From an uncultured Nitrososphaeraceae archaeon (lineage in GTDB: Archaea; Thermoproteota; Nitrososphaeria; Nitrososphaerales; Nitrososphaeraceae): DNA of 64,000 nucleotides. Location: contig CAVSMN010000001.1 of NCBI GenBank assembly GCA_963729045.1, forward strand, positions 24,705-88,704, given 5' to 3'. Below are positions 6,007-64,000 of the stretch, in pieces (the stretch's first letter is position 1; every line of letters begins with the position of its first letter). A program made the position numbers and the translations under genes. Under the pieces are notes generated by a model. It made no database searches. It saw nothing but the letters and a program-made list of their open reading frames with translations, and was not told the DNA's origin.

Positions 6007-6609
6007 TTATATCATACTTTCGGATTCTACAGAAACTTTATTTTTATCCTCATATTGCTTGATATGATTTTTAAGTTCTAGAGTTTTAGAAATTTCATCT
6101 AATCCATTTACCAAATAATTTTTTAATGTAGGGTCAATATCAAAATCAAAGACTTGAGAATTTATCTTAATTTGTTGTTGTATCAAATCTATTTCAAAGT
6201 TGTCGTTTATTTTGGAGGAAAAGAAATCTTCGATTGTATTCTTGTCCATTTTGATGACCAAAACACCATTTTTAGAACAATTATTGTAAAAAATATCTGC
6301 AAAAGATACCCCAAGGATTACTTTGAAGCCATAATCCTTAAGTGCCCATACCGCATGTTCTCTTGAGCTTCCTATACCAAAATTTTCACGCGTTAATAGA
6401 ATCTGTCTTCCACTATATAGAGGAGAGTTCAATACAAAATCCTTTAATGGTAAACCTTGTTTATCATAACGCCAATTAAAAAATAAATATTCACCGTATC
6501 CAGTTTTACCCAAAAGTTTTAAGAATTGTTTTGGAATAATTTGATCTGTATCAATATTCGCAATATCAAGCGGAACTACCTTACTTGTCAGATTCTTAAA
6601 AGGTTCCAT
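6007..6609 (-). CDS. leuD: 3-isopropylmalate dehydratase small subunit
   Basis: NIDTDQIIPKQFL, NFGIGSSREHAVWAL, SFADIFYNN; start taken at MEPFK. Confidence 0.96.
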   Translation of the reverse strand: MEPFKNLTSKVVPLDIANIDTDQIIPKQFLKLLGKTGYGEYLFFNWRYDKQGLPLKDFVLNSPLYSGRQILLTRENFGIGSSREHAVWALKDYGFKVILGVSFADIFYNNCSKNGVLVIKMDKNTIEDFFSSKINDNFEIDLIQQQIKINSQVFDFDIDPTLKNYLVNGLDEISKTLELKNHIKQYEDKNKVSVESESMI

Positions 6610-6646
6610 AAATACACCTGTAATTTTTATCTGTAATAAATCAAAC

Positions 6647-8062
6647 TTAAACCCATTCTCTAACATCAACAAACTTTCCGGCTATTGCAGCGGCCGCAGC
6701 CATCAAAGGACTAACAAGGTGAGTACGTCCCCCTGTACCTTGGCGTCCTTCGAAATTTCTATTGGAAGTGCTAGCACACCTTTCACCTGCTTGAAGTATA
6801 TCAGGATTCATTCCTAAGCACATACTACAGCCAGGCTCTCTCCATTCAAAACCAGCATTCATAAAAATTTTATCCAATCCCAATTTTTCGGCAGCAATTT
6901 TTACCTGTTGTGATCCCGGAACGACCATTGCTTTAACATTAGAAGATACTTTTTTCCCTTTCACTGCATTAGAAGCTTCGATTAAATCTTCTAATCTTGC
7001 ATTTGTGCAAGAACCGATAAAAACTCGATCCACTGAAATATCAGTAATTGGTAAACCCGGTTTCAAATTCATGTATTCGAGGGCCTTAATAGCAGATTTT
7101 TTTTCATCATCATTTCCTTTAGAATATTCATCAGGAGAGGGAATTGCAGAGTCCACATCGATAGTCATAGCTGGATTAGTACCCCAAGTAACTTGAGGAG
7201 CAAGATTATCGATATCAATAGAGAAAGTCTTATCGTATTGCGCTCCGTTATCAGATCGGAGATTCTTCCAATTGTCTATTTGTTGATCAAATAATTCATT
7301 TTTGGGAGAATAGACTCTTCCCCTTAAATATTCAAAAGTAATTTCATCTGGAGCAACAAGACCCGCTCGAGCACCTGCTTCGATAGACATATTACAAATA
7401 GTCATGCGTTTTTCCATTGTGAGGGATGAAATGTAGTTTCCCTTGTATTCAATCACTGATCCTGAACCACCAGATGTACCTATTTTTCTAATAATGTTTA
7501 ATATAACATCTTTAGACGATATAGCCTGGTTTTGCTTTAAACCGCCATTCAAAACTATTTCAAAATTTTTTGACTTTTTCATCCATAGACATTGAGTAGC
7601 CAATACATGTTCTACTTCACTGGTACCTATACCAAAAGCCAGGGATCCGAATGCCCCATGAGTGGAGGTATGGCTATCGCCACAAACAATCGTACTACCG
7701 GGAAGTGTCAATCCCAATTCTGGACCGATTACATGAACTATCCCTTGATACTTATCATGAATATCAAAAAGTCTTATTCCGAATTCTTTACAATTATTTT
7801 TTAATGCTTGTATTTGTAATGATGAGATTTGATCCACAATGGGCAAGGATCTGTTAGTAGTGGGAACGTTATGATCTACAGTAGCAAAAGTAAGATCGGG
7901 TCTTCTAACATTTCTCTCATTAATCCTAAGGCCATCAAAAGCTTGAGGCGAAGTTACTTCATGCACATAATGCCTATCAATGTATAAAAGGGACAAATTA
8001 CTACTTTCATCAGAATATACTACGTGATTATCCCAAATCTTGTCGTATAGAGTTTGTGCCAA
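6647..8062 (-). CDS. leuC: 3-isopropylmalate dehydratase large subunit
   Basis: [40 protein letters not shown]. Confidence 0.98.
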
Positions 8063-19240: not shown

Positions 19241-19255
19241 AAAAGAACATCTTGT

Positions 19256-19271
19256 TTATCATTAGTGATAA
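19256..19271. promoter_or_regulatory. Palindrome TTATCA-ttag-TGATAA upstream of amoC copy 1
   Basis: Perfect 6-4-6 inverted repeat, arms conserved in copy 2. Confidence 0.55.
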
Positions 19272-19399
19272 TCATCGACGATAAGCTTGACAACATTGAC
19301 AAAACATCAGAAATTTAGTTAATTAATTAAACATTCATCTAATAATTTAATAATATTCCATCAATTTCTAGTATTATTTATAAATATTTTAGTTCACAT

Positions 19400-19410
19400 C
19401 TTATATATTT
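19400..19410 (+). promoter_or_regulatory. Putative TATA box of amoC
   Basis: CTTATATATTT about 30-37 bp upstream of ATG; identical in copy 2. Confidence 0.55.
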
Positions 19411-19437
19411 AATCAACGAAGACATGGTGATAGTAAA

Positions 19438-20001
19438 ATGGCACAAATGCCTGCATTAATTCCAAAGGAAGTAGAAATCCAGAGGCTAAAAAAGATCTAT
19501 ATAATGGTCATTATGCTAGGGTCTATTGCTGCATCAGTAGAAGTAGACAACTTTGTTGATGGATCATTGCACCAAACAGCCATCAGAGACAGTGCATTTA
19601 CACCAGCTCATTGGTGGTTATACAGTCACTTTATTGCACTCCCACTAGGTTGGGGATTTGTTGCGATGTATGACAGGAGAGTACCAGCATTAAGAGGACC
19701 AAACAATTCAATGAATACTGGTCTAAAGATAACCATTATCGGTTATTTAGCTACCATGTTCACAATTGGTATCAATGAAATGTGGCACTTTTGGTTTGTT
19801 GAAGAAATATTTTCAGTACCTAACCACTGGATGTTTAACATGGGTGTAGTAGTAGCTTTCATGGGTGCTTTGGCCTATGTAGTTAGGGTATACGCACGTT
19901 TGGTAGAACTTGGCGCTGAAACTCCTGCAAGGAACCCCTATGTAGCAGAAATGTACAAACTAGCATTAGAAGGAAAACTCTACAGCAGATCAGTTCCATA
20001 A
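19438..20001 (+). CDS. amoC: Ammonia monooxygenase subunit C
   Basis: MAQMPALIPKEVEIQRLKK, VDGSLHQT, DSAFTPAHWWLYSHF, NEMWHFWFVEEIFSVPNHW. Confidence 0.99.
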   Translation: MAQMPALIPKEVEIQRLKKIYIMVIMLGSIAASVEVDNFVDGSLHQTAIRDSAFTPAHWWLYSHFIALPLGWGFVAMYDRRVPALRGPNNSMNTGLKITIIGYLATMFTIGINEMWHFWFVEEIFSVPNHWMFNMGVVVAFMGALAYVVRVYARLVELGAETPARNPYVAEMYKLALEGKLYSRSVP

Positions 20002-20003
20002 TC

Positions 20004-20055
20004 TTTTTTTTGTTTTGTTTTAGTGCTTTGTTTTTGTTTTAGTTAGTTAATTTTA
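20004..20055 (+). terminator. Oligo-T archaeal terminator of amoC
   Basis: T8 run and further T-rich tracts directly after the stop codon; similar after copy 2. Confidence 0.6.
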
Positions 20056-20159
20056 CTTAATTATTTAGATACATTAGAATAGAAACCGATATAGTTAATT
20101 TCCCTAAAAGTCCAATCTTTCTTTATAGGAAATGCATCTTAAAATAAACAAGGTGGTAC

Positions 20160-32983: not shown

Positions 32984-33811
32984 TTTATCAATACTGATAA
33001 TCATCGACGATAAGCTTGACAACATTGACAAAACATCAGAAATTTAGTTAATTAATTAAACATTAATCTAATAATTTAATAATATTCCATCAATTTCTAG
33101 TATTATTTATAAATATTTTAGTTCACATCTTATATATTTAATCAACGAAGACATAGTGATAGTAAAATGGCACAAATGCCTGCATTAATTCCAAAGGAAG
33201 TAGAAATCCAGAGGCTAAAAAAGATCTATATAATGGTCATTATGCTAGGGTCTATTGCTGCATCAGTAGAAGTAGACAACTTTGTTGATGGATCATTGCA
33301 CCAAACAGCCATCAGAGACAGTGCATTTACACCAGCTCATTGGTGGTTATACAGTCACTTTATTGCACTCCCACTAGGTTGGGGATTTGTTGCGATGTAT
33401 GACAGGAGATGTACCAGCATTAAGAGGACCAAACAATTCAATGAATACTGGTCTAAAGATAACCATTATCGGTTATTTAGCTACCATGTTCACAATTGGT
33501 ATCAATGAAATGTGGCACTTTTGGTTTGTTGAAGAAATATTTTCAGTACCTAACCACTGGATGTTTAACATGGGTGTAGTAGTAGCTTTCATGGGTGCTT
33601 TGGCCTATGTAGTTAGGGTATACGCACGTTTGGTAGAACTTGGCGCTGAAACTCCTGCAAGGAACCCCTATGTAGCAGAAATGTACAAACTAGCATTAGA
33701 AGGAAAACTCTACAGCAGATCAGTTCCATAATCTTTTTTTTTGTTTTTAGTTTTAGTTTTTGTTTTAGTTAGTTAATTTTGTACTTAATTATTTAGATAC
33801 ATTAGAATAGA
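32984..33811 (+). repeat. amoC cassette direct repeat, copy 2
   Basis: Near-identical to 19255..20083. Confidence 0.97.
33167..33731 (+). CDS. amoC: Ammonia monooxygenase subunit C, second copy; 1-bp insertion at 33410 (pseudogene or assembly error)
   Basis: Identical to 19438..20001 except the extra T in gacaggagaTgtacc. Confidence 0.95.
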
Positions 33812-47811: not shown

Positions 47812-49986
47812 TTACCTATAGTAAGGTACTGTAACTTTCTCACCCGACTTACTATCTCTTTGAGTTTTTATCTTCTTTACAGCATCTTCGAAATGTTTCA
47901 TTGTAACATGTGCCTCCGATGCATGTTTTGCAGCGTCTTCAGGATTACTATATTTTTGAAGATACTCATGCAACACGAGTGAAACCGCCGTATTTGCAAC
48001 AGCAGATACATCAGCTCCACTAAATCCATCTGTAATTTCAGCGATTCTATCGAAATCAACGATGTCAGAAATAGGTTTTTCTGATGAATGAATTTCCAAT
48101 ATTTTCTTTCTTGTAGCCTTGTCAGGTAAAGGCACATACACTATCTTATCAAACCTACCTGGTCTTAACAATGCAGGATCGATCATATCCGATCGGTTAG
48201 TTGCGGCAATAATAACTACACTGGTTAATTGTTGAATTCCATCCAATTCGGTTAATAGTTGCGAAACGACCCTTTCAGTTACCATGCTATCACCTCCCAG
48301 TCCTCTTACTGGTGCGATAGAATCTATTTCATCAAAGAAAACAACACATGGTGCGGCTTGTCTTGCACGTCGGAAAATTTCTCTGACCCCTCTTTCGGAT
48401 TCGCCAACCCATTTTGACAATAATTCCGGTCCTTTCACGCTAATGAAATTAGCTTCAGATTCTGTAGCAACTGCCTTGGCAAGCATCGTTTTTCCGGTAC
48501 CAGATGGACCATGCATCAGAATTCCTTTGGGATTAGAGTGACCTAGTTTTGTATAAAGATCTGGGTACCTTAATGGCCATTCCACTGCTTCCTGTAGCTC
48601 TCGTTTAACATCATCTAATCCACCTATATCATTCCATTCAACATCAGGAGATTCCAGATAAACTTCCCTCATGGCAGAGGGCATCACTTCTTTAAGAGCA
48701 CTTTCAAAGTCAGACATGGTAACAATCAATTTATTCAATACTTCAGGATTTATTTTCTCATCCTCCAAGTTAAGTTCAGGTAACAATCGTCTAAGACATT
48801 TCATTGCAGCCTCCTTACAGAGATATTCCAAATCTGCACCAACAAAACCATGACTTACAGATGCTATTTTTTCTTGATTTACATCTGATTCTAAAGGCAT
48901 ATTTCTTGTATGAATTTGTAGGATTTCCAATCTACCACGCTTATCAGGAACTTTAATTTCAATCTCTCGGTCAAATCGACCAGGTCTTCTTAGAGCTGGA
49001 TCGATGGCATTTGGTCTATTTGTGGCAGCAATAACTATAACTTTACCTCTTGCTTCCAATCCATCCATCAAAGATAATAACTGAGATACAACTCTACGTT
49101 CAACTTCTCCTGTTACTTCTTCTCGCTTTGGAGTTATAGAGTCTATTTCGTCGATAAACATTATAGAAGGAGCCTTTTCCTTGGTTTCTTTAAATATTTC
49201 ACGCAGTCTTGCTTCAGATTCACCATAGAATTTGCTCATTATTTCTGGACCAGAGATACTTACGAAGTGTGCATTACTTTCATTAGCCACTGCTTTTGCC
49301 AACAAGGTCTTACCGGTACCTGGAGGTCCATACAACAACACTCCCTTTGGTGCCTCTATACCCAGTTTTTCAAATATTTCTGGATGTCGTAATGGCAGTT
49401 CAATCATTTCACGAACTTTTTGGGCTTCCTCTTTTAGGCCACCAATATCTTCGTATGTAACTTGTGGTACTCCACGGAGAGTTTCTCCCCGTTCAGCGAT
49501 ATGAAATACAGTTTTTTGAGTAACTAAAACGGCATCAACACCAGGACCTGGGGTGACACCTATGACTTGAAATGTAAGTCTACCACCAAAATATGGCACC
49601 ATCACATTGTCGCCTTTGATTAATGGTACACTTTCAAGAGCATCAGCTAAATATCGTTCATCAATTGGAGGAATAGCTTCTAATGGTGCAACTATAACTT
49701 TTTCTGCAGGAACAGCTTTAATCTTTCTAACAATTACAGTGTCTCCTATAGCTACACCTGCATTATTTCTAACCAGACCATCAACTCGGAGTATACCCTT
49801 ACCTTCGTCCGAAGGATAAAGAGGTAAACATTTTGCAACTGTTCTACGTTTACCTTTAATTTCCACGACATCACCTGTAGATGCGCTCAAAGCATCCATA
49901 GATTCATAATCAATTCTAGCAACACCACGGCCTACATCTCGGGTATAAGCTTCTAGCACCTTTAGTGATATGGTGTTTTGGCTCAT
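47812..49986 (-). CDS. cdc48: CDC48/VCP family AAA ATPase
   Basis: N-domain plus two AAA modules ([16 protein letters not shown]), ALRRPGRFD. Confidence 0.97.
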
Positions 49987-56160: not shown

Positions 56161-56886
56161 TTATTGGGTTGTTGATTGCGATTGACCTATTCCTTGAGTT
56201 GTTGCACTTTCATCGTTACCATTACCATTACCATTACCATCATCACTATTGTTATTGTCAAATGCAATGTTATCAGCTGATTTAATATCAGTTACACACA
56301 CAGCTTTTAGTTCATCATTATCATTAAATTGTGGTGAGAGTCTAAAGGATACTACATCCTCAACATCGGTTCCAGGTCTAATGGTCAAATCATTTTTACT
56401 TAATGCATCTGTACCTGAGAAAGATGCTGGAATTTCTGTCAAGTCAGCATTGTTATTTTCAATGTCTACTTGTCCTGGGGATTCGAATGTTATAGATTCG
56501 ACCTGAAGGTCATTTCCACAGTTATCAGAATTTTCTCCTAATGTTACAAAGTGGTTATGCCATACGGGATCATTTGCATCTGTTTGTTCTTCACTATCTT
56601 GGACACCTGCATGTGTTGTGCTAACTACTACTGCATCTAACCCTTCTGTAGTTAACACACCGTATCCAAATGCACCACCATCACCATTCGTGGGAATATG
56701 ACCATGGGTTTCAAGGAATGCACTCATTTCATCTGAATTAGCATCAATTGTGGCTTCTCTTATGTTAAGAAAGTCATCATTATCTCCTCCTTCTGAATTA
56801 GAGGATATAGATGCAAATGCCAGACTTAAAGGTGACAATACTAATATTAATAGCATAGAAACAACTGCAATGAGTTGATTATTCAT
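56161..56886 (-). CDS. Secreted acidic His-containing hypothetical protein
   Basis: Signal peptide; THGHIP, AFGYG, TTHAGVQDSE, WHNHFV; GN repeats; QGIGQSQS tail. Confidence 0.75.
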   Translation of the reverse strand: MNNQLIAVVSMLLILVLSPLSLAFASISSNSEGGDNDDFLNIREATIDANSDEMSAFLETHGHIPTNGDGGAFGYGVLTTEGLDAVVVSTTHAGVQDSEEQTDANDPVWHNHFVTLGENSDNCGNDLQVESITFESPGQVDIENNNADLTEIPASFSGTDALSKNDLTIRPGTDVEDVVSFRLSPQFNDNDELKAVCVTDIKSADNIAFDNNNSDDGNGNGNGNDESATTQGIGQSQSTTQ

Positions 56887-57490: not shown

Positions 57491-58213
57491 TTAGTTGTTA
57501 GTATTTAGACATACTACATAAGGAGTTATTTGAATATCTTCTCCTTCCACGTTTATCGTCCAGCTGTTATTTTGAATGTTGGGTATGCTTCCAATTTCAT
57601 TTATTTCTCCGTTACCGCCTCCTTCTTCATCTCCTACGATATTGTATCCACCACTTAACGGAATATCATTGTCGTTACAGGTTGCAGTGGCAGTTACAAA
57701 AGAATCTTCTTCGGATGTAGATTGTTGAACGCCATTTTTAACATACATGTTTTCCTTTAAGATAATAGAGTTATTACCTGCTGGTCCTTGGGGTCCTACT
57801 TCACCTGCTGGTCCTTGTGGTCCTACTTCACCTGCTGGTCCTTGTGGTCCTACTTCACCTGCGGGTCCTTGTGGTCCTACTTCACCTGCGGGTCCTTGTG
57901 GTCCTACTTCACCTGCGGGTCCTTGTGGTCCTACCGATTCATCGTTTCCCGTGGACTCTGCTATATTCTGTTCTATGTTATCTTTTATTGGTTCAGGTAA
58001 TATCACGGATTGATTATCAATATTGAAAAATGATTGAGATTGATTTTCGTTAAATAAAGGTTCAGTATGTGTTTGTGATAAGTTATCGTTTGAAGAATCA
58101 CTAATGTTTCCCACATCAACATCTAGTTGTTGAGCAACTACAAGTCCATGGTTACCCTGTATGGCAGTCAAGATTATTGTAATTATAATCAAATAATATA
58201 CAATTGATTGCAT
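57491..58213 (-). CDS. Secreted collagen-like protein
   Basis: Signal peptide, (GPQGPAGEV)5-GPQGPAG, C-terminal domain ATC..LSGGY..W..VVC. Confidence 0.9.
57777..57933 (-). repeat. 27-bp tandem repeat (about 6 units) encoding Gly-X-Y triplets
   Basis: cctgc(t/g)ggtccttgtggtcctacttca units on the + strand. Confidence 0.95.
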
Positions 58214-58590: not shown

Positions 58591-59709
58591 AGATGCTCAT
58601 ATTATGATATATGTGTAGAGGCCAAACAACATACTGATTTCTTGTTTGGCAGTGTAAAAAGAATAACCTTGATGGTATAGTATTGTTAGCACGGATGTTT
58701 GACATTGTTAGATTAATACAACTCTATTCCCCTTCAGATATAAAAATATAATGGTTAAAATTGTAATTAATTTACAATTCCACTCAAATAGTAGAAAATA
58801 TTTCATCAATATTGAAAAAGTTATTGAAATTTAATCAAAGTTTCAACAAGGATGGAAATGTCGAGTTAACCATATTACATCTAGATGTCTTTTTTGCTGT
58901 CTTTTTGCGATCTTATTTAAAATGACTACCTAATTATGTTTTTTATCACCCAAACAAGCATTCGATCCTTGAATTAAAAAAAGAATGGATTTGCATGAGA
59001 ATGAATGTGTTTTAATTGATAAACATGGTCTAATTTTCCCAAGTAGGTGTTAAAGGGGTATTAAATACAGCCAACAGCATTAATAAGCCATTTAGTTAAA
59101 GAACATACATTTTGTTTTTTACATATAGAAATGGATATAGAACGGATATATTTGTGAACTTTACAACTAATGAAATTCCATTTTTTGCCACTTATCCTAA
59201 TGAAACAAATGTCAATGACCTGATGTTTTACCGAAAATCAGTTCGCCATTGTTAAAACAGGTAGTTGAGGCTCTTCGGTGATTTGGATTTCTTTAAGTTT
59301 GTTAATAAATACTCATCTATTTATCCATTTACCCAACGGTTTAGAGAGAAGAAAGAGGATCCTACTCTTCACATTCAGCAGAACACAATTAAAGATTAGA
59401 AAATGTCGAGTACCAGAAGTGCTCTTCATTATAACATTGATCTGTTTGATATGATATCATCCATAAAATAGATCAAGTGGTTGCCAAATGTGACTGGAAG
59501 TTAACTAAAAACATTTACTGACAACCTTTAAATATAATTATTGTGATATTTTGGTATTGTTTAACAAGATCACATATTTACATATTAATACCTCATCATT
59601 ACGTGAATTAATTGAACGTGAAAGCCGGATATTTTCATGCAGGATTCAATAAAAATCACACCTTACAAAAAGTTGCATTAATTTAATGATCCAGTTAAAC
59701 GAGTAGAAA

Positions 59710-60879
59710 ATGAATAAGAAGATGGTGGATGATTTGGGAAATAAAAATAATACAACAAAAGATGAAAATAATATACATCTTTCCCTAAAAGAGGGTGGTC
59801 TACAGGATAATCAAATAACCTTTGTTAATTTTTCCAATAATTATTGTGTATGCATAATTGATATAATTGATTCTACAAACAATACATATGATATATTAGA
59901 ATCTAAAAAGATCAAACAATACTATTCTGTATTTCTCAATACCATGACCTCAATTATAAGCCGTCATGGGGGTAAAGTAATTAAAAACGCTGGCGATAAC
60001 TTGTTGTATTATTTTCCAAGGACAATGAATGAGAGCAACTATTTGGATTTTCAAGATGTAATTGAATGTGGATTATCTATGATTGATGCAAAGGATCAAG
60101 TAGATCTGCTGTTGAATTTAAATGGATTACCACCTATAAATTATAGGATTAGTGCAAGTTATGGTAAAGTAGAACTAGCTATCGTAGCAAATTCTCATAG
60201 CGGCGATATTTTTGGAACACCTGTAAATGTATGTTCTAAAATAAATCATTTAGCTTCATCGAATCAAATGATAATTCATAGAGATCTTTATCAAGTGATG
60301 AAAGAAATGCCATATTTCGATGACTATGTATTTGAGGAATTAGATCGTAAAAACAGTGTTAACGACTATTCAGAGAATAATAGAAATGTATATACAACTT
60401 ATTCCGTTCGTCGATTTGAAGATATTAATAAACAAAAAGAAATAGAAAGTAAAATATTAGCATTACATGATGAACGTAAGCGTATTCATCAAAATAAAAA
60501 TAACTCGTCTTTTAACATTTTGTTGATAGATGATGACAAAGACATTCTTTTTACATATTCAGCGATAATTAAAAGCCAAGGCTTTACAATAACATCTTTT
60601 TCAAATCCATACAAAGCACTTGATGACTTTTCCACAACGAATCCATATCTGTACGATTTAGTTATAATGGATATACGGATGCCTGGAATAAATGGTATTA
60701 AATTATACTCTAAATTTAGGATAATGAATCCCAATGTAAAGATACTTTTTATGTCGGCATTAGATGCTGTTGGTGAATTGTTAAGCTTATTTCCTGAAAT
60801 TAGTGATTCAGATATCTTGAGAAAACCTGTAGATTCCCAACAATTATTAGACAAAATAAATACAACAATAAGACAATAA
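59710..60879 (+). CDS. Class III adenylate/guanylate cyclase fused to a C-terminal response-regulator receiver domain
   Basis: IIDIIDST, KVIKNAGD, YRISASYG, DIFGTPVNVCSKI; REC: LIDDD, IMDIRMP, FMSA, RKP. Confidence 0.9.
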   Translation: MNKKMVDDLGNKNNTTKDENNIHLSLKEGGLQDNQITFVNFSNNYCVCIIDIIDSTNNTYDILESKKIKQYYSVFLNTMTSIISRHGGKVIKNAGDNLLYYFPRTMNESNYLDFQDVIECGLSMIDAKDQVDLLLNLNGLPPINYRISASYGKVELAIVANSHSGDIFGTPVNVCSKINHLASSNQMIIHRDLYQVMKEMPYFDDYVFEELDRKNSVNDYSENNRNVYTTYSVRRFEDINKQKEIESKILALHDERKRIHQNKNNSSFNILLIDDDKDILFTYSAIIKSQGFTITSFSNPYKALDDFSTTNPYLYDLVIMDIRMPGINGIKLYSKFRIMNPNVKILFMSALDAVGELLSLFPEISDSDILRKPVDSQQLLDKINTTIRQ

Positions 60880-61297
60880 GAAATTAGTTAGAAGACAAAT
60901 TGACTTGAACAAAAGTCATAATACAGGTCTTTTATTTAGAACTTGTTCCGAAGTAAGATGGTAAGCAATATTAGTAACGATCTATATTATTATTATTATT
61001 TTGTTATAAACGACCTTCAGGTTCTCTAGAAGAGTAATTAATACCCTATTGATTACTGCGGTAAAGACCCTTAGAATATTCAGTTAAACCAAAAGATCTA
61101 GACGCAAATTATGAAATTGGAAATAATGATTTTACAATTCATAATGGTGACATGGCAAATAATTTAAAATTAAAAGACTATCAATAGTGAATGATGTTCA
61201 CCCTTACTACTAGCTCAATGGAGATTAGGTTTTATAAGAAATTAAGAGATTCATAAGTTTATACCTGTTAAACCAACGCCGATACCGATGATACCCT

Positions 61298-63080
61298 CTA
61301 TAAAGATAAAGATAAAGTACCTATTTCATAAATAATAGTTTCAATAAATAAAATTTGATCTTTGATATGGTTCAGATTCGATTTGTTCCTGCGTTTGGTT
61401 CGGGGTCTGATTACTGAAATAGATCTTAGTTCAACAGGAATACTAAAGCTAAAAGTACAACCAATTCCGTTCTGGTTGTTTGATGCCCAGATCTTACCTC
61501 CATGAGCTTCTACTATGTTTTTTGAAATGTATAGTCCTAAACCAGTTCCACTATCGGACTTTGTAATAAACTTTTCAAATAGATGATTCATTACCTCAGA
61601 ATTAATTCCTTTACCCTTGTCAACAATACTTACAATTACCTGTTCTGCGTTCTTTTTCCTTAATACTGTTATATTTATTTTCCCATCCTTAGTGAACTTT
61701 TTTGCGTTATTTAATAAATTTAGTATCACCTGTGATATTCTAGCTTTATCGCCTTCTACTAAAATTGATTGATCAAACTCATCATTTAATCTAGTTCCAT
61801 CATGGAAATCAAAATCAATGGATACATATTCTTCCTTTTTTTCTGAATTTGTGGTAAAGTCCTGGATGGTATTTTCAACAAGCTCTACAAAATCAAACCT
61901 CGAAATATTAAGTCTTAATATATGACTATCTATTCTGGAGACGTCCAAAATATCGTCGGTTAGCTTTTGCAATTTCTTTGCGTTTCTATATATCACTTTA
62001 ATATCTTCTTTCAATTCGGACTTATCGATCTCGCTAGTGTTATTCTGAAGGTTTTGATTGATCAGATCAGAAAGTCCCAGAATGGGCTGAATTGGTGTAC
62101 GCAATTCATGGGCAGCTATATTAATAAAATCATCCTTGATTTTTTCGTTTTCCTGTAATTTTTTAAGATTTTCTTTGATTAATGAATTGGCCTTTTTTAG
62201 ATACATACTGTATTGCATGCTTGATATAAATAAGTGCAATAATATTTACAAAATATCCTACGTCTTTAAGAACATGTGCCATATTGTGTGCAGTATCAAA
62301 AGACATTGCAGAAAAGGCCATCACGATCTGTGTAAATATATCTATTACAAGATACAAGGCAAGTCCTTTATACACGACATCTTTTTTTAGATAGAGTTTT
62401 TTTTTGTAAAAAAAGAACAATACCAAACAAAATAATATTAGAGGTGGAATTTCGTACGGCCGATGCACGGAATAATCATCTAAAACAGATGCAGGATAAA
62501 CCAAAAAGAGTGAGCTTAAAGCTGTAACTATTGCGATAATCCCCAAAATTGATATATAAAAAATTATACCATCTTTTTGTGCAATATTAGTTCTTTTTTC
62601 ATGTTCCTCTTGTGTATACGATTGGGATCTGATGTCAGTTAGTTGTCCTATTTCTTCTCTTTCAGATAGTGAAGAGTATTTTAAGATAGCAATTAAGAGC
62701 ATCGCACCAAGGAAGAATCGGCCTGCAAACCAGGTTTGAGGAATGAAATATTTTATAAAATTTATATTCTCTATTAATGCAAAAGATACTATAACATGGA
62801 ATAAATCGATAGAAACACTAATAAAAAAGCCTACACCAACAAAAAGACTAAATCTATCTCTTAGAACCCTATAACGCAAAATGTAATAAAAGGATAGAGC
62901 CGAGCCTAGTATTACTGCAATCAATTCGATGTAAAAATGATGTGTTTCTGAAGAAACCCATAAAGTAGGATCTAATGAGACTGCCAAGAACAGAGACAGC
63001 AGTAGAGAAGGCACAACAATTAGTTTAATTATACTCGATAAAATCGAATCATCTGAAAAAATATGAGTAAGATTTTTCAA
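61298..63080 (-). CDS. Sensor histidine kinase with a MASE3-like multi-TM input domain (frameshift near 62230)
   Basis: HFYIELIA, DLFH, TWFAGR TM domain; AAHELRTPIQP, NLLNNAKKF, DKGKGI, GTGLGL. Confidence 0.88.
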
Positions 63081-63226
63081 AAAAAATCATCCTCTCTTAG
63101 TAATAATCATAAAAATATGAAATAATATTGGACAGGTGTGGAAACTCATCGGTTTGTTTGCTACAATATCCCATCCGAATTTGTTTTCAATATCTACTAC
63201 AATAAACATTAACGAATTCAATACTG

Positions 63227-64000
63227 TCAATTACCATCTATTTTAGCTTCAGATAACTTCCTTTTTATGATTGAGATAAATTGTTCGCCGCTTAAAGGTT
63301 TTCTCACAATTTCAGTCATTTTGATTTCAGGTAATGCTTCAACGAACTCGCCAACCAGATCCAGAGCAGTTACAAAAATAATATTCAAATATGGATCTAT
63401 CGCTTTAAATCTGTAGAATAGCCTTATTCCGCTCACCTCGCGCATTCTTATATCCATAACTACCAAGTCATAGTTATGTGAATTCTTTTTTGTCAAGTTT
63501 TTTAGAGCTTCAATAGGATTTGAATAGGAATGTACTTTATATCCCTCCCTTTTTAACAGTGATTTAAATGTGTATAGAATATCCACGTCATCATCTATTA
63601 GTAAGATATTGTACTGTTTGTTTTTTATTTGACCCAGTCGCTTGATTTCATTTGAAGTGGATGGATACTTTAGTCCTTCTTGTCGTTTGTTTGTGGATAA
63701 AATTTCTCTATTATCTATTATTGTGTAATACGAATTGAAATTTCTGCTGTTCCCATCTAATGATAGTTTGATCTCAGATATTTCAAATCCTTTACTAAAA
63801 GTCGAATTAATTAATAAGGAATACAAGTTCTTTCCTATTACCAATCCATTTGATTTAGACAAGCTGTTTATTTTGGCACATTCATTTACTACCGAGCCAA
63901 ATAAGTCCACTTCCTTGTTGGTAGACCCCAGGGCAACTTCTACTAATCCGTAATTCATACTAATTCTATAATTGATAGGCGGCAGATCTTCCTGTGCTAA
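63227..64000 (-). CDS. Second class III cyclase-REC fusion (5' part lies outside the window)
   Basis: Frame open to the window edge: LAQEDLPPINYRISMNYG, DLFGSVVNECAKI; REC: LIDDD, VMDIRM, FVTA, RKP. Confidence 0.88.
   Translation of the reverse strand, partial: LAQEDLPPINYRISMNYGLVEVALGSTNKEVDLFGSVVNECAKINSLSKSNGLVIGKNLYSLLINSTFSKGFEISEIKLSLDGNSRNFNSYYTIIDNREILSTNKRQEGLKYPSTSNEIKRLGQIKNKQYNILLIDDDVDILYTFKSLLKREGYKVHSYSNPIEALKNLTKKNSHNYDLVVMDIRMREVSGIRLFYRFKAIDPYLNIIFVTALDLVGEFVEALPEIKMTEIVRKPLSGEQFISIIKRKLSEAKIDGN

Follow-up and report, generated by a model that had tools for sequence, protein, structure and literature searches.

The 64,000-nucleotide stretch of archaeal DNA analysed here (the window) ends in a group of four open reading frames (ORFs; 59710..64000 in the ORF list) that is best explained as a two-component system of a Candidatus (Ca.) Nitrosocosmicus ammonia oxidiser. 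It comprises two paralogous response regulators, here called copy 1 and copy 2 (41% identity), in which a class III cyclase-homology domain (CHD) is followed by a receiver (REC), and, between them, a histidine kinase (HK) with a MASE3 membrane sensor domain. From the sequences we propose a phospho-regulated adenylate cyclase, in which the MASE3 kinase would control the CHD-REC protein by phosphorylation-driven dimerisation, and we give this proposal about an even chance of being right. The conserved unit is copy 2 followed by the MASE3-HK gene on one strand, which we read here as an operon on the minus strand, copy 1 being an orphan regulator of another paralog clade. The new elements are the domain architecture, the sequence motif, the gene linkage and the gap in receptors described below. 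The presence of the cyclase domain is not new, because the domain calls are already in the source databases, which name homologs 'response regulator' and 'class 3 adenylate cyclase/...response regulator', and because extra class III cyclases, along with sensor kinases and regulators, are given among the Nitrosocosmicus-specific core genes in a 2025 comparative genomics study (PMC13577086). The features of the locus are as follows.

59710..60879, + strand: copy 1, CHD-REC response regulator of 389 aa (ORF, Pfam, AlphaFold2 (AF2) model, tree); orphan paralog, convergent to the kinase
59815..60339, + strand: class III CHD of copy 1, residues ~36-210 (Foldseek, PDB profile matches, conservation)
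60424..60492, + strand: long helix linking CHD to REC in copy 1, residues 239-261 (DSSP on the AF2 model); presumed signal-transmitting element
60514..60873, + strand: receiver of copy 1, residues 269-388 (Pfam, 71 bits); codon of D321 at 60670-60672
61298..62239, - strand: histidine-kinase core, HisKA and HATPase_c, 313 aa (Pfam); 3' part of the frameshifted MASE3-HK gene, codon of the H-box His at 62108-62110
61407..61414, no strand: length-variable stretch in the 3' tail of the kinase, after HATPase_c (nucleotide alignment with genome G043)
62163..63080, - strand: MASE3 membrane sensor domain, 305-aa ORF (PF17159, hydropathy); 5' part of the same kinase gene
62228..62230, no strand: frameshift site, AAA (+ strand) where the intact G043 ortholog has AA (nucleotide alignment)
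63227..64000, - strand: copy 2, CHD-REC response regulator of the kinase cassette, 257 aa, 5' end open (ORF, Pfam; complete orthologs in loci L019 and L036)

The copy 2/MASE3 kinase unit and the place of copy 1

An earlier note on this DNA, made from the letters and the translated ORFs, had called cyclase, receiver, MASE3 and kinase domains, and Pfam profile searches bear out both the ORFs and the calls. Copy 1 matches Guanylate_cyc (PF00211) at 33 bits (cut-off 21.9, residues 44-203) and Response_reg (PF00072) at 71 bits (residues 270-383). The membrane ORF matches MASE3 (PF17159) at 37.2 bits (cut-off 31) and has at least five strongly hydrophobic segments in a crude hydropathy scan; the kinase core ORF, with an intact H-box, gives 52.7 bits with HisKA and 92.9 bits with HATPase_c. 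Contig C1 of the source genome ends where the window ends, so that copy 2 is cut at its 5' side; the remaining fragment, which contains the last ~70 residues of the CHD and the whole REC, scores 70.7 bits with Response_reg and 20.1 bits with Guanylate_cyc, the latter just below the cut-off because the CHD is truncated. The complete ortholog of copy 2 in genome G043, 84% identical over 253 aligned columns, reaches 37.9 bits with Guanylate_cyc. The source genome consists of 22 contigs (2.85 Mb, 87% complete), with a GC content of ~30%. The nearest named homologs come from Ca. Nitrosocosmicus. Among the best 120 matches listed, the proteins of the locus are found again with identities of 83-97%, several of these matches bearing that name at source, which is far beyond chance.

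The MASE3-type kinase had been put forward as the partner of the regulators, and its role as the likely cognate partner is reinforced by the many relatives in which a copy-2-type regulator lies directly upstream of it on the same strand. The copy 2/MASE3-HK cassette recurs in three paralogous versions in Ca. Nitrosocosmicus and also in a second genus (G012, G026), and the complete copy-2 orthologs of loci L019 and L036 each lie directly upstream of an intact MASE3-HK gene. Among 23 loci compared (20 around CHD matches and three from the source genome itself), nine have a CHD-REC gene directly upstream of a same-strand MASE3-HK gene: the window, C8:1-9500, C8:58500-66000, G032, G001, G043 twice (one of the two kinases being broken), G073 and G012, the last from another genus. 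In two genomes of a second family CHD-REC is followed by a PAS-containing HK (L032, L033). The 30 best MASE3-HK loci include eight with CHD-REC upstream, all in the genus of the window, and three with a hybrid MASE3-HK-REC protein; several are cut by contig ends. A wider sample comprised 54 CHD-REC genes from 78 named loci, with the context categories transcribed by hand: the MASE3-HK gene is directly downstream on the same strand in 10 of the 54, convergent downstream in 5 and upstream on the same strand in 1, another kinase is nearby in 10, and 3 are cut by the contig end. Gene linkage gives the predicted pairing of kinase and regulator good support.

A tree of 27 CHD-REC proteins computed with IQ-TREE, from which two frameshifted copies on contig C8 were excluded, groups copy 2 with the regulators found before the window-type kinase (100/100) and places copy 1, with its 91%-identical G043 ortholog, in a separate clade (100/100) that is sister to regulators with a different MASE3-HK of their own (96/90). 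The linkage of CHD-REC with MASE3-HK spans three paralog clades. A kinase of the sister-clade type was not found in this 87%-complete metagenome-assembled genome (MAG), and copy 1 is without a kinase of its own. A comparison of specificity residues between kinases and receivers proved too thin to assign it one. The copy-1 ortholog lies 0.4 kb from the copy-2 cassette and convergent to it in the window, ~2.2 kb away on C8, 0.5 and 1.4 kb away in two MAGs, 0.4 kb away and co-directional on one short MAG contig (L065, L066, L070), and ~10 kb away in G043 and on two long MAG contigs. The neighbourhood proposed in the earlier note is therefore conserved in relatives as regards copy 2 and MASE3-HK, but not as two paralogs flanking a kinase, the distance and orientation of copy 1 being variable.

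The further idea that copy 1 and copy 2 together form the functional cyclase, jointly controlled by the kinase between them, has gained no positive evidence, and we consider it very unlikely. The proximity of copy-1 orthologs to the copy 2/MASE3-HK cassette, within 0.4 to ~10 kb, would suit it, as would the lack of a sister-clade kinase for copy 1 in this MAG. However, D, K, G-D, R, D, N and K are present at all catalytic columns not only in copy 1 but also in the two complete forms of copy 2, from C8 and from G043, so that each paralog could form symmetric homodimers. Known obligate class III heterodimers show complementary loss of catalytic residues; since both paralogs keep the full set, nothing points to an obligate heterodimer here. 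The copies belong, moreover, to different and well-supported clades, the alpha-1 helix of the copy 1 receiver resembles that of the sister clade and not that of copy 2, and neither spacing nor orientation of the two genes is fixed.

The locus has a second version in the assembly: C8:6-6460 matches window 59349..63997 at 88-89% identity, with a 1.8-kb insert and several frameshifts. We judged a true segmental duplication of the module less likely, because the matches of C8 to other contigs are confined to its two ends (the C1 end and the C9 end), its gene order (HK, REC, copy 2, MASE3-HK, then copy 1) is that of the single G043 locus, and the C8 copy is 93.6% identical to G043 as against 90% to the window. 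These comparisons suggest one locus assembled twice, either as two variants or as noisy contig ends, and the first 6.4 kb of C8 with their frameshifts look like contig ends left unmerged or badly polished, or like variants of the strain. At its other end C8:96478-100403 overlaps C9:230663-234479 at 93-98% identity; C1, C8 and C9 are probably neighbouring contigs. The relatives also carry, directly upstream of copy 2 on the same strand, a kinase of 604 aa whose N-terminal region is PLD-like, together with a single-domain receiver (C8, L011 7222..9421, - strand; G043, L019 4929..7365, + strand); the full neighbourhood is HK, REC, CHD-REC, MASE3-HK, of which the HK/REC part lies beyond the contig end in this genome.

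The earlier description of a MASE3-type kinase holds for its domains, with MASE3 above its cut-off and HisKA and HATPase_c both present, but had missed that the gene is divided here between two ORFs overlapping in different frames, so that this assembly encodes no single polypeptide. One extra base is responsible (AAA at 62228-62230 on the + strand versus AA in G043). In the complete genome G043 one open frame of 590 aa encodes the whole ortholog, which has MASE3, HisKA and HATPase_c but lacks a PAS domain; MASE3 matches occur in 79 of 120 genomes of the family, almost always in open frames of 540-600 aa, and the MASE3-HK gene is uninterrupted in most of the 30 best relatives' loci. We also compared the contigs of four public runs with window 59600..64000 (run X2, with 0.91 of the sampled words, contributed no contig, which does not prove that the locus is missing from it). 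In the soil runs X1 (study P1) and X4 (study P4) the single covering contig, at least 95-99% identical to the window, is one base shorter at 62225 and 62227, respectively, within 3 nt of the frameshift site. Because relatives have one ORF and two independent soil runs lack the extra base, the split probably arose in assembly or is confined to this strain, and the kinase is probably intact in near-identical soil populations. A second difference lies at 61407-61414, where the window is 11 nt shorter than G043 and the last ~35 kinase residues are out of frame; here the X1 contig has 11 nt more and the X4 contig 1 nt less. Contigs from one RNA library partly overlap each of the four ORFs, which hints only weakly at transcription.

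If the frameshift were real, the kinase would be a pseudogene and the system dead in this strain. The extra base does stand in the assembly, the 3' tail is out of frame as well, and a paralogous MASE3-HK gene is broken even in the complete genome G043. We nevertheless regard a dead system as unlikely, given the two runs from different studies with one base fewer, a change that is a difference in homopolymer length, and the several further frameshifts in C8:1-6460, which suggest poorly polished contig ends. The broken G043 paralog (L017, G043:C1:3148000-3164000, 6015..7660) is a MASE3-HK gene downstream of CHD-REC that falls into three ORFs in a complete single-contig genome, and some CHD-REC/MASE3-HK cassettes may be decaying.

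The cyclase-homology and receiver domains

The AF2 model of copy 1 (60-sequence alignment; predicted local distance difference test (pLDDT) 88.4, predicted TM-score (pTM) 0.83) consists of a disordered N-terminus (residues 1-27), the CHD (~36-210), a less confident insertion (211-230), a helix (239-261) and the receiver (269-388). A Foldseek search of the PDB with this model returned class III cyclases as all top matches: Cya2 (2w01) was the best (E 7e-13), followed by Rv1625c, CyaC, CyaB, RhoGC and mammalian AC, with E-values from 7e-13 to 5.5e-10 and target-normalised TM-scores of 0.72-0.84 for single-domain chains. This assignment was also obtained with a CHD-only profile built from 22 sequences (alignment A2), which retrieved CyaB (4e-13), Cya2 (6e-10) and CyaC (1.2e-8) from the PDB; all 34 of its matches are proteins of the nucleotide-cyclase fold, mostly adenylate or guanylate cyclases.

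HMMER alignment to the solved cyclases locates D51, D96, K92, D166, N173, K177 and the Arg of the R-x-G-x3-G motif (R146) in copy 1, with D166 three residues before a conserved Gly. We take D51 and D96 to be the metal-binding Asp residues, K92 and D166 the base-specifying pair, presumably of the adenine type found in class III cyclases, and K177 to stand at the position of the transition-state Arg. The earlier reading of both metal Asp and the Lys/Asp pair in copy 1 thus agrees with the alignments. To assess conservation we scanned 1.84 billion cluster representatives with residues 1-260 of copy 1, which yielded 873 clusters with E<=1e-3, of which 133 reach E<=1e-30, and aligned copy 1 with 143 of the 150 best representatives (144 rows; seven whose match did not span the domain were dropped), which share at most 50% identity. 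K92 is kept in 144/144 rows, D96 and G95 in 140/144 each, D166 in 139/144, R146 and C175 in 134/144 each and D51 in 133/144. The canonical Asn-x3-Arg motif is altered: Asn173 is kept in 133/144 rows, while Lys occupies the Arg position in 138/144 and Arg in only 4. The Lys noted earlier in both copies is thus really there, but it is a hallmark of the family in 138 of the 144 and not a peculiarity of these two proteins. From this pattern the active-site set is under strong purifying selection with one conservative, family-wide change, Lys for Arg.

The receivers, which the earlier note had described as intact, indeed have the acidic pair, the phospho-acceptor Asp, the Ser/Thr and the Lys in both copies. 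In copy 1 these are D274/D275, D321, S349 and K372; copy 2 reads D-D-D, M-D-I-R-M, T-A-L-D and R-K-P. Among 60 homologs D275, D321 and P373 are invariant, and D274 and K372 are at least 90% conserved. The C-terminal position of the receiver, likewise pointed out before, recurs in the relatives: a Pfam scan (E<=1e-4) of 70 of the 150 best representatives found REC C-terminal to CHD in 37/70 (28 with both domains called, 9 with REC alone) versus REC-CHD in 1/70. The others were dCache-HAMP-CHD (7/70), HAMP-CHD (2/70), MEDS-CHD (1/70), proteins with Guanylate_cyc as the sole family called (21/70, short stand-alone or longer proteins, some up to 1,650 aa) and one without a Pfam match (1/70).

The chain of events that we infer from these domains would begin with a membrane-associated signal that sets autophosphorylation of the kinase on its H-box His. 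The phosphoryl group would be handed to the receiver Asp (D321 in copy 1), and dimerisation of the receivers would, via the linker helix, bring two CHDs into the head-to-tail dimer required by class III cyclases, which would convert ATP to 3',5'-cyclic AMP (cAMP). The predicted catalysis and product are plausible. A prediction of the CHD homodimer (alignment A2, two copies) scored 0.00 versus a mark of 0.42 with controls not run, and weighs neither way on dimerisation.

Receptors, product and alternative roles

Using the CHD as query (E<=1e-15), we found the subfamily in 17 of 18 genera and in 113 of 120 further genomes of the window's family (a tally that takes in the unpublished genomes G035, G077 and G099). 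A class-wide sample shows it in 29/30 genomes of the window's family (f1), 110/145 of a second family (f2), 1/7 of f3 and 2/3 of f5; it was not found at this threshold in the 65 sampled genomes of ten other families. A pattern scan of 185,579 species genomes retrieved 286 relatives; the 78 loci kept are titled Nitrosocosmicus, Nitrososphaera, Nitrososphaeraceae, Nitrosopumilaceae, Nitrosarchaeum, Thaumarchaeota, Thermoproteota archaeon and, in one case, 'Archaeon'. Within the genomes scanned the subfamily thus appears only in the order of ammonia oxidisers. The source genome itself has 16 PF00211 matches in ~14 genes.

The canonical receptor domain for cyclic nucleoside monophosphates (cNMPs), PF00027, is distributed differently. 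It occurs in 24 of 251 genomes of the class sample: 8/30 in f1 (5/7 in the window's genus), 0/145 in f2, 5/7 in f3 and 7/9 in f6. The only PF00027 match of the source genome is a 557-aa protein in the C1:17634-17894 region (L013 196..1869, - strand), upstream of the window and ~67 kb from copy 1, in which a cyclic-nucleotide-binding (CNB) domain (residues 37-123) is fused to a thioredoxin-reductase-like pyridine nucleotide-disulphide oxidoreductase; open frames like this fusion (557-592 aa) occur in 5/7 sampled genomes of the genus.

Several of the observations weigh against a phospho-regulated adenylate cyclase. PF00027 does not track the CHD subfamily (0/145 against 110/145 in f2, 8/30 against 29/30 in f1), which speaks most strongly against a textbook cAMP pathway, and the source genome has ~14 CHD genes for one CNB protein and one GAF protein. 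Throughout the family Lys takes the place of the transition-state Arg, and we know of no active enzyme with this replacement. The phosphate-loop motif is D-(I/M)-V-(N/D)-S-T instead of the canonical D-I-x-G-F-T. In canonical class III enzymes a Lys of the C-terminal hairpin contacts the gamma-phosphate; in copy 1 it is not evident, the corresponding stretch being an insertion with pLDDT 63-70. Finally, the kinase gene is frameshifted in this assembly, and 25 of the 54 CHD-REC genes have no kinase within ~2.5-3 kb.

The altered phosphate loop, the family-wide Lys and the hairpin Lys that is not evident would all suit a pseudo-cyclase, whose CHD binds nucleotide or only dimerises without turnover, so that the protein would act as a scaffold or sensor under the control of phosphorylation, or would serve the kinase as a phosphate sink; so would the near absence of receptor domains from most genomes carrying the family, and the one or two candidate receptors beside ~14 CHD genes in the source genome. 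Yet both metal Asp, the Lys/Asp pair, the Asn and the R-x-G Arg show 92-100% conservation among clusters no more than 50% identical to one another, as would be expected of a working active site and is unusual for degenerate CHDs, and the exchange of Arg for Lys is conservative, since the charge is preserved. We consider a pseudo-cyclase unlikely.

The failure of CNB domains to track the family would also be explained if the cyclase were active but made something other than cAMP, such as cGMP, a cyclic pyrimidine like those of Pycsar systems, or another nucleotide. PADLOC models of PycC match at 31-43 bits, about as well as Pfam Guanylate_cyc, and the uridylate cyclase 8jsz is among the PDB profile matches. 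These matches, however, reach only the level of general class III homology, the adjoining gene encodes a histidine kinase and no Pycsar-type effector, and the K92/D166 pair is adenine-type; a different product seems quite unlikely to us. 

Because PF00027 does not follow the CHD subfamily, we also entertain a bolder proposal: a separate clade of class III homologs in ammonia-oxidising archaea, characterised by Asn-x3-Lys and the (N/D)-S-T loop, may make a nucleotide messenger that is read by receptors unrelated to CNB or GAF, with its CHD-REC members wired into two-component systems in Nitrososphaeraceae. We put this forward tentatively, as possible rather than probable. If true, it would represent the first defined archaeal pathway of cyclic-nucleotide synthesis, with a non-canonical catalytic residue, a C-terminal regulatory topology and a new class of effectors.

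Neighbouring features and relation to known systems

Some other features of the genome deserve mention. At window 57491..58213 (- strand) a 240-aa protein with an N-terminal hydrophobic segment has six near-perfect 9-residue collagen-like G-x-y repeats (tandem repeat at 57776..57934, 27-nt unit, 5.9 copies, 98% match; Pfam Collagen 39 bits, cut-off 27.2), which is unusual for an archaeon. An Asn/Asp-rich protein of 241 aa, signal-like at its N-terminus and unmatched in Pfam, is encoded at 56161..56886 (- strand); its homolog on C8 (L011, 2010..3056) is fragmented and lies inside the 1.8-kb insert between the C8 version of copy 1 and the kinase. A repeat of ~0.8 kb occurs in three copies at 98-99.5% identity (window 19255..20083 and 32984..33811, i.e. 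C1:43959-44787 and C1:57688-58515, and C11:100140-100938) and may be a mobile element or a recently duplicated gene. Window 47853..49964 (C1:72557-74668) is duplicated at C10:21015-23126 (2.1 kb, 93.8% identity).

According to the consulted part of a 2023 review, cAMP occurs in archaea but no archaeal protein that makes, degrades or binds it has been characterised, and Thaumarchaeota are not mentioned in that part (PMC10249747). COG2114 is enriched in sponge Thaumarchaeota (PMC9289680), and cyclase genes are labelled in a figure legend of PMC4836417. A 2018 census of archaeal two-component systems (PMC5847659) has neither 'cyclase' nor 'MASE3' in its main text and no Guanylate_cyc or PF00211 in its searchable supplements, a CHD-REC entry in supplement file 4 being possible. 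We found no literature joining MASE3 histidine kinases with archaea and, in the sources available to us, no experimental work on the CHD-REC family, the cyclases of ammonia oxidisers being mentioned there at the level of annotation.

Since the CHD family is near-universal in soil and marine ammonia oxidisers, some of which are cultured, it offers a concrete, clonable and testable candidate for the missing archaeal cAMP synthase, tied to a membrane sensor kinase. The near absence of canonical receptors predicts either new effectors or a non-cyclase role for the conserved active site, and either would be informative. The system is lineage-specific, and its interest is raised by the missing receptors and by the open question of cAMP synthesis in archaea.

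Among the closest known systems are the solved bacterial class III domains Cya2 (2w01), CyaB (3r5g), CyaC (1wc0) and Rv1625c (7yz9), which share the fold of the copy 1 CHD (target-normalised TM-score 0.72-0.81) and in which both metal Asp, the Lys, the Asp/Thr position, the Asn and the R-x-G Arg align with copy 1. Copy 1 is, however, only 15-18% identical to them, has Lys for the transition-state Arg and (N/D)-S-T for G-F-T, and lacks their N-terminal coiled-coil transducer: its CHD starts ~35 residues in, and the regulatory helix is C-terminal to it. Bacterial REC-CHD adenylate cyclases of the cyanobacterial CyaC type likewise combine receiver and class III CHD in a single protein that is governed by a two-component system, but their receiver is N-terminal to the CHD, and the archaeal family has the reverse order; the copy 1 receiver is also matched by PDB entry 3kcn, titled 'adenylate cyclase homolog'. 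Diguanylate cyclases of the PleD/WspR type probably follow the same logic, in which receiver phosphorylation would drive dimerisation of a cyclase domain active as a dimer, though with GGDEF in place of a class III CHD, an N-terminal receiver and c-di-GMP as the product. The kinase shares the MASE3 membrane domain and the HisKA/HATPase_c core with NCBIfam NF047874 (MASE3_PAS_HK); it differs in its archaeal source and in having, in the intact ortholog, no PAS domain between MASE3 and HisKA, and the kinase ORFs score 152 and 32 bits against a cut-off of 560 bits. PycC of the Pycsar systems shows general class III homology to copy 1 (the 31-43 bits given above); unlike Pycsar, the archaeal locus has no adjacent effector gene, its CHD carries a fused receiver and has a kinase as its partner, its base-specifying pair is of the adenine type, and its neighbours are a kinase and regulators.

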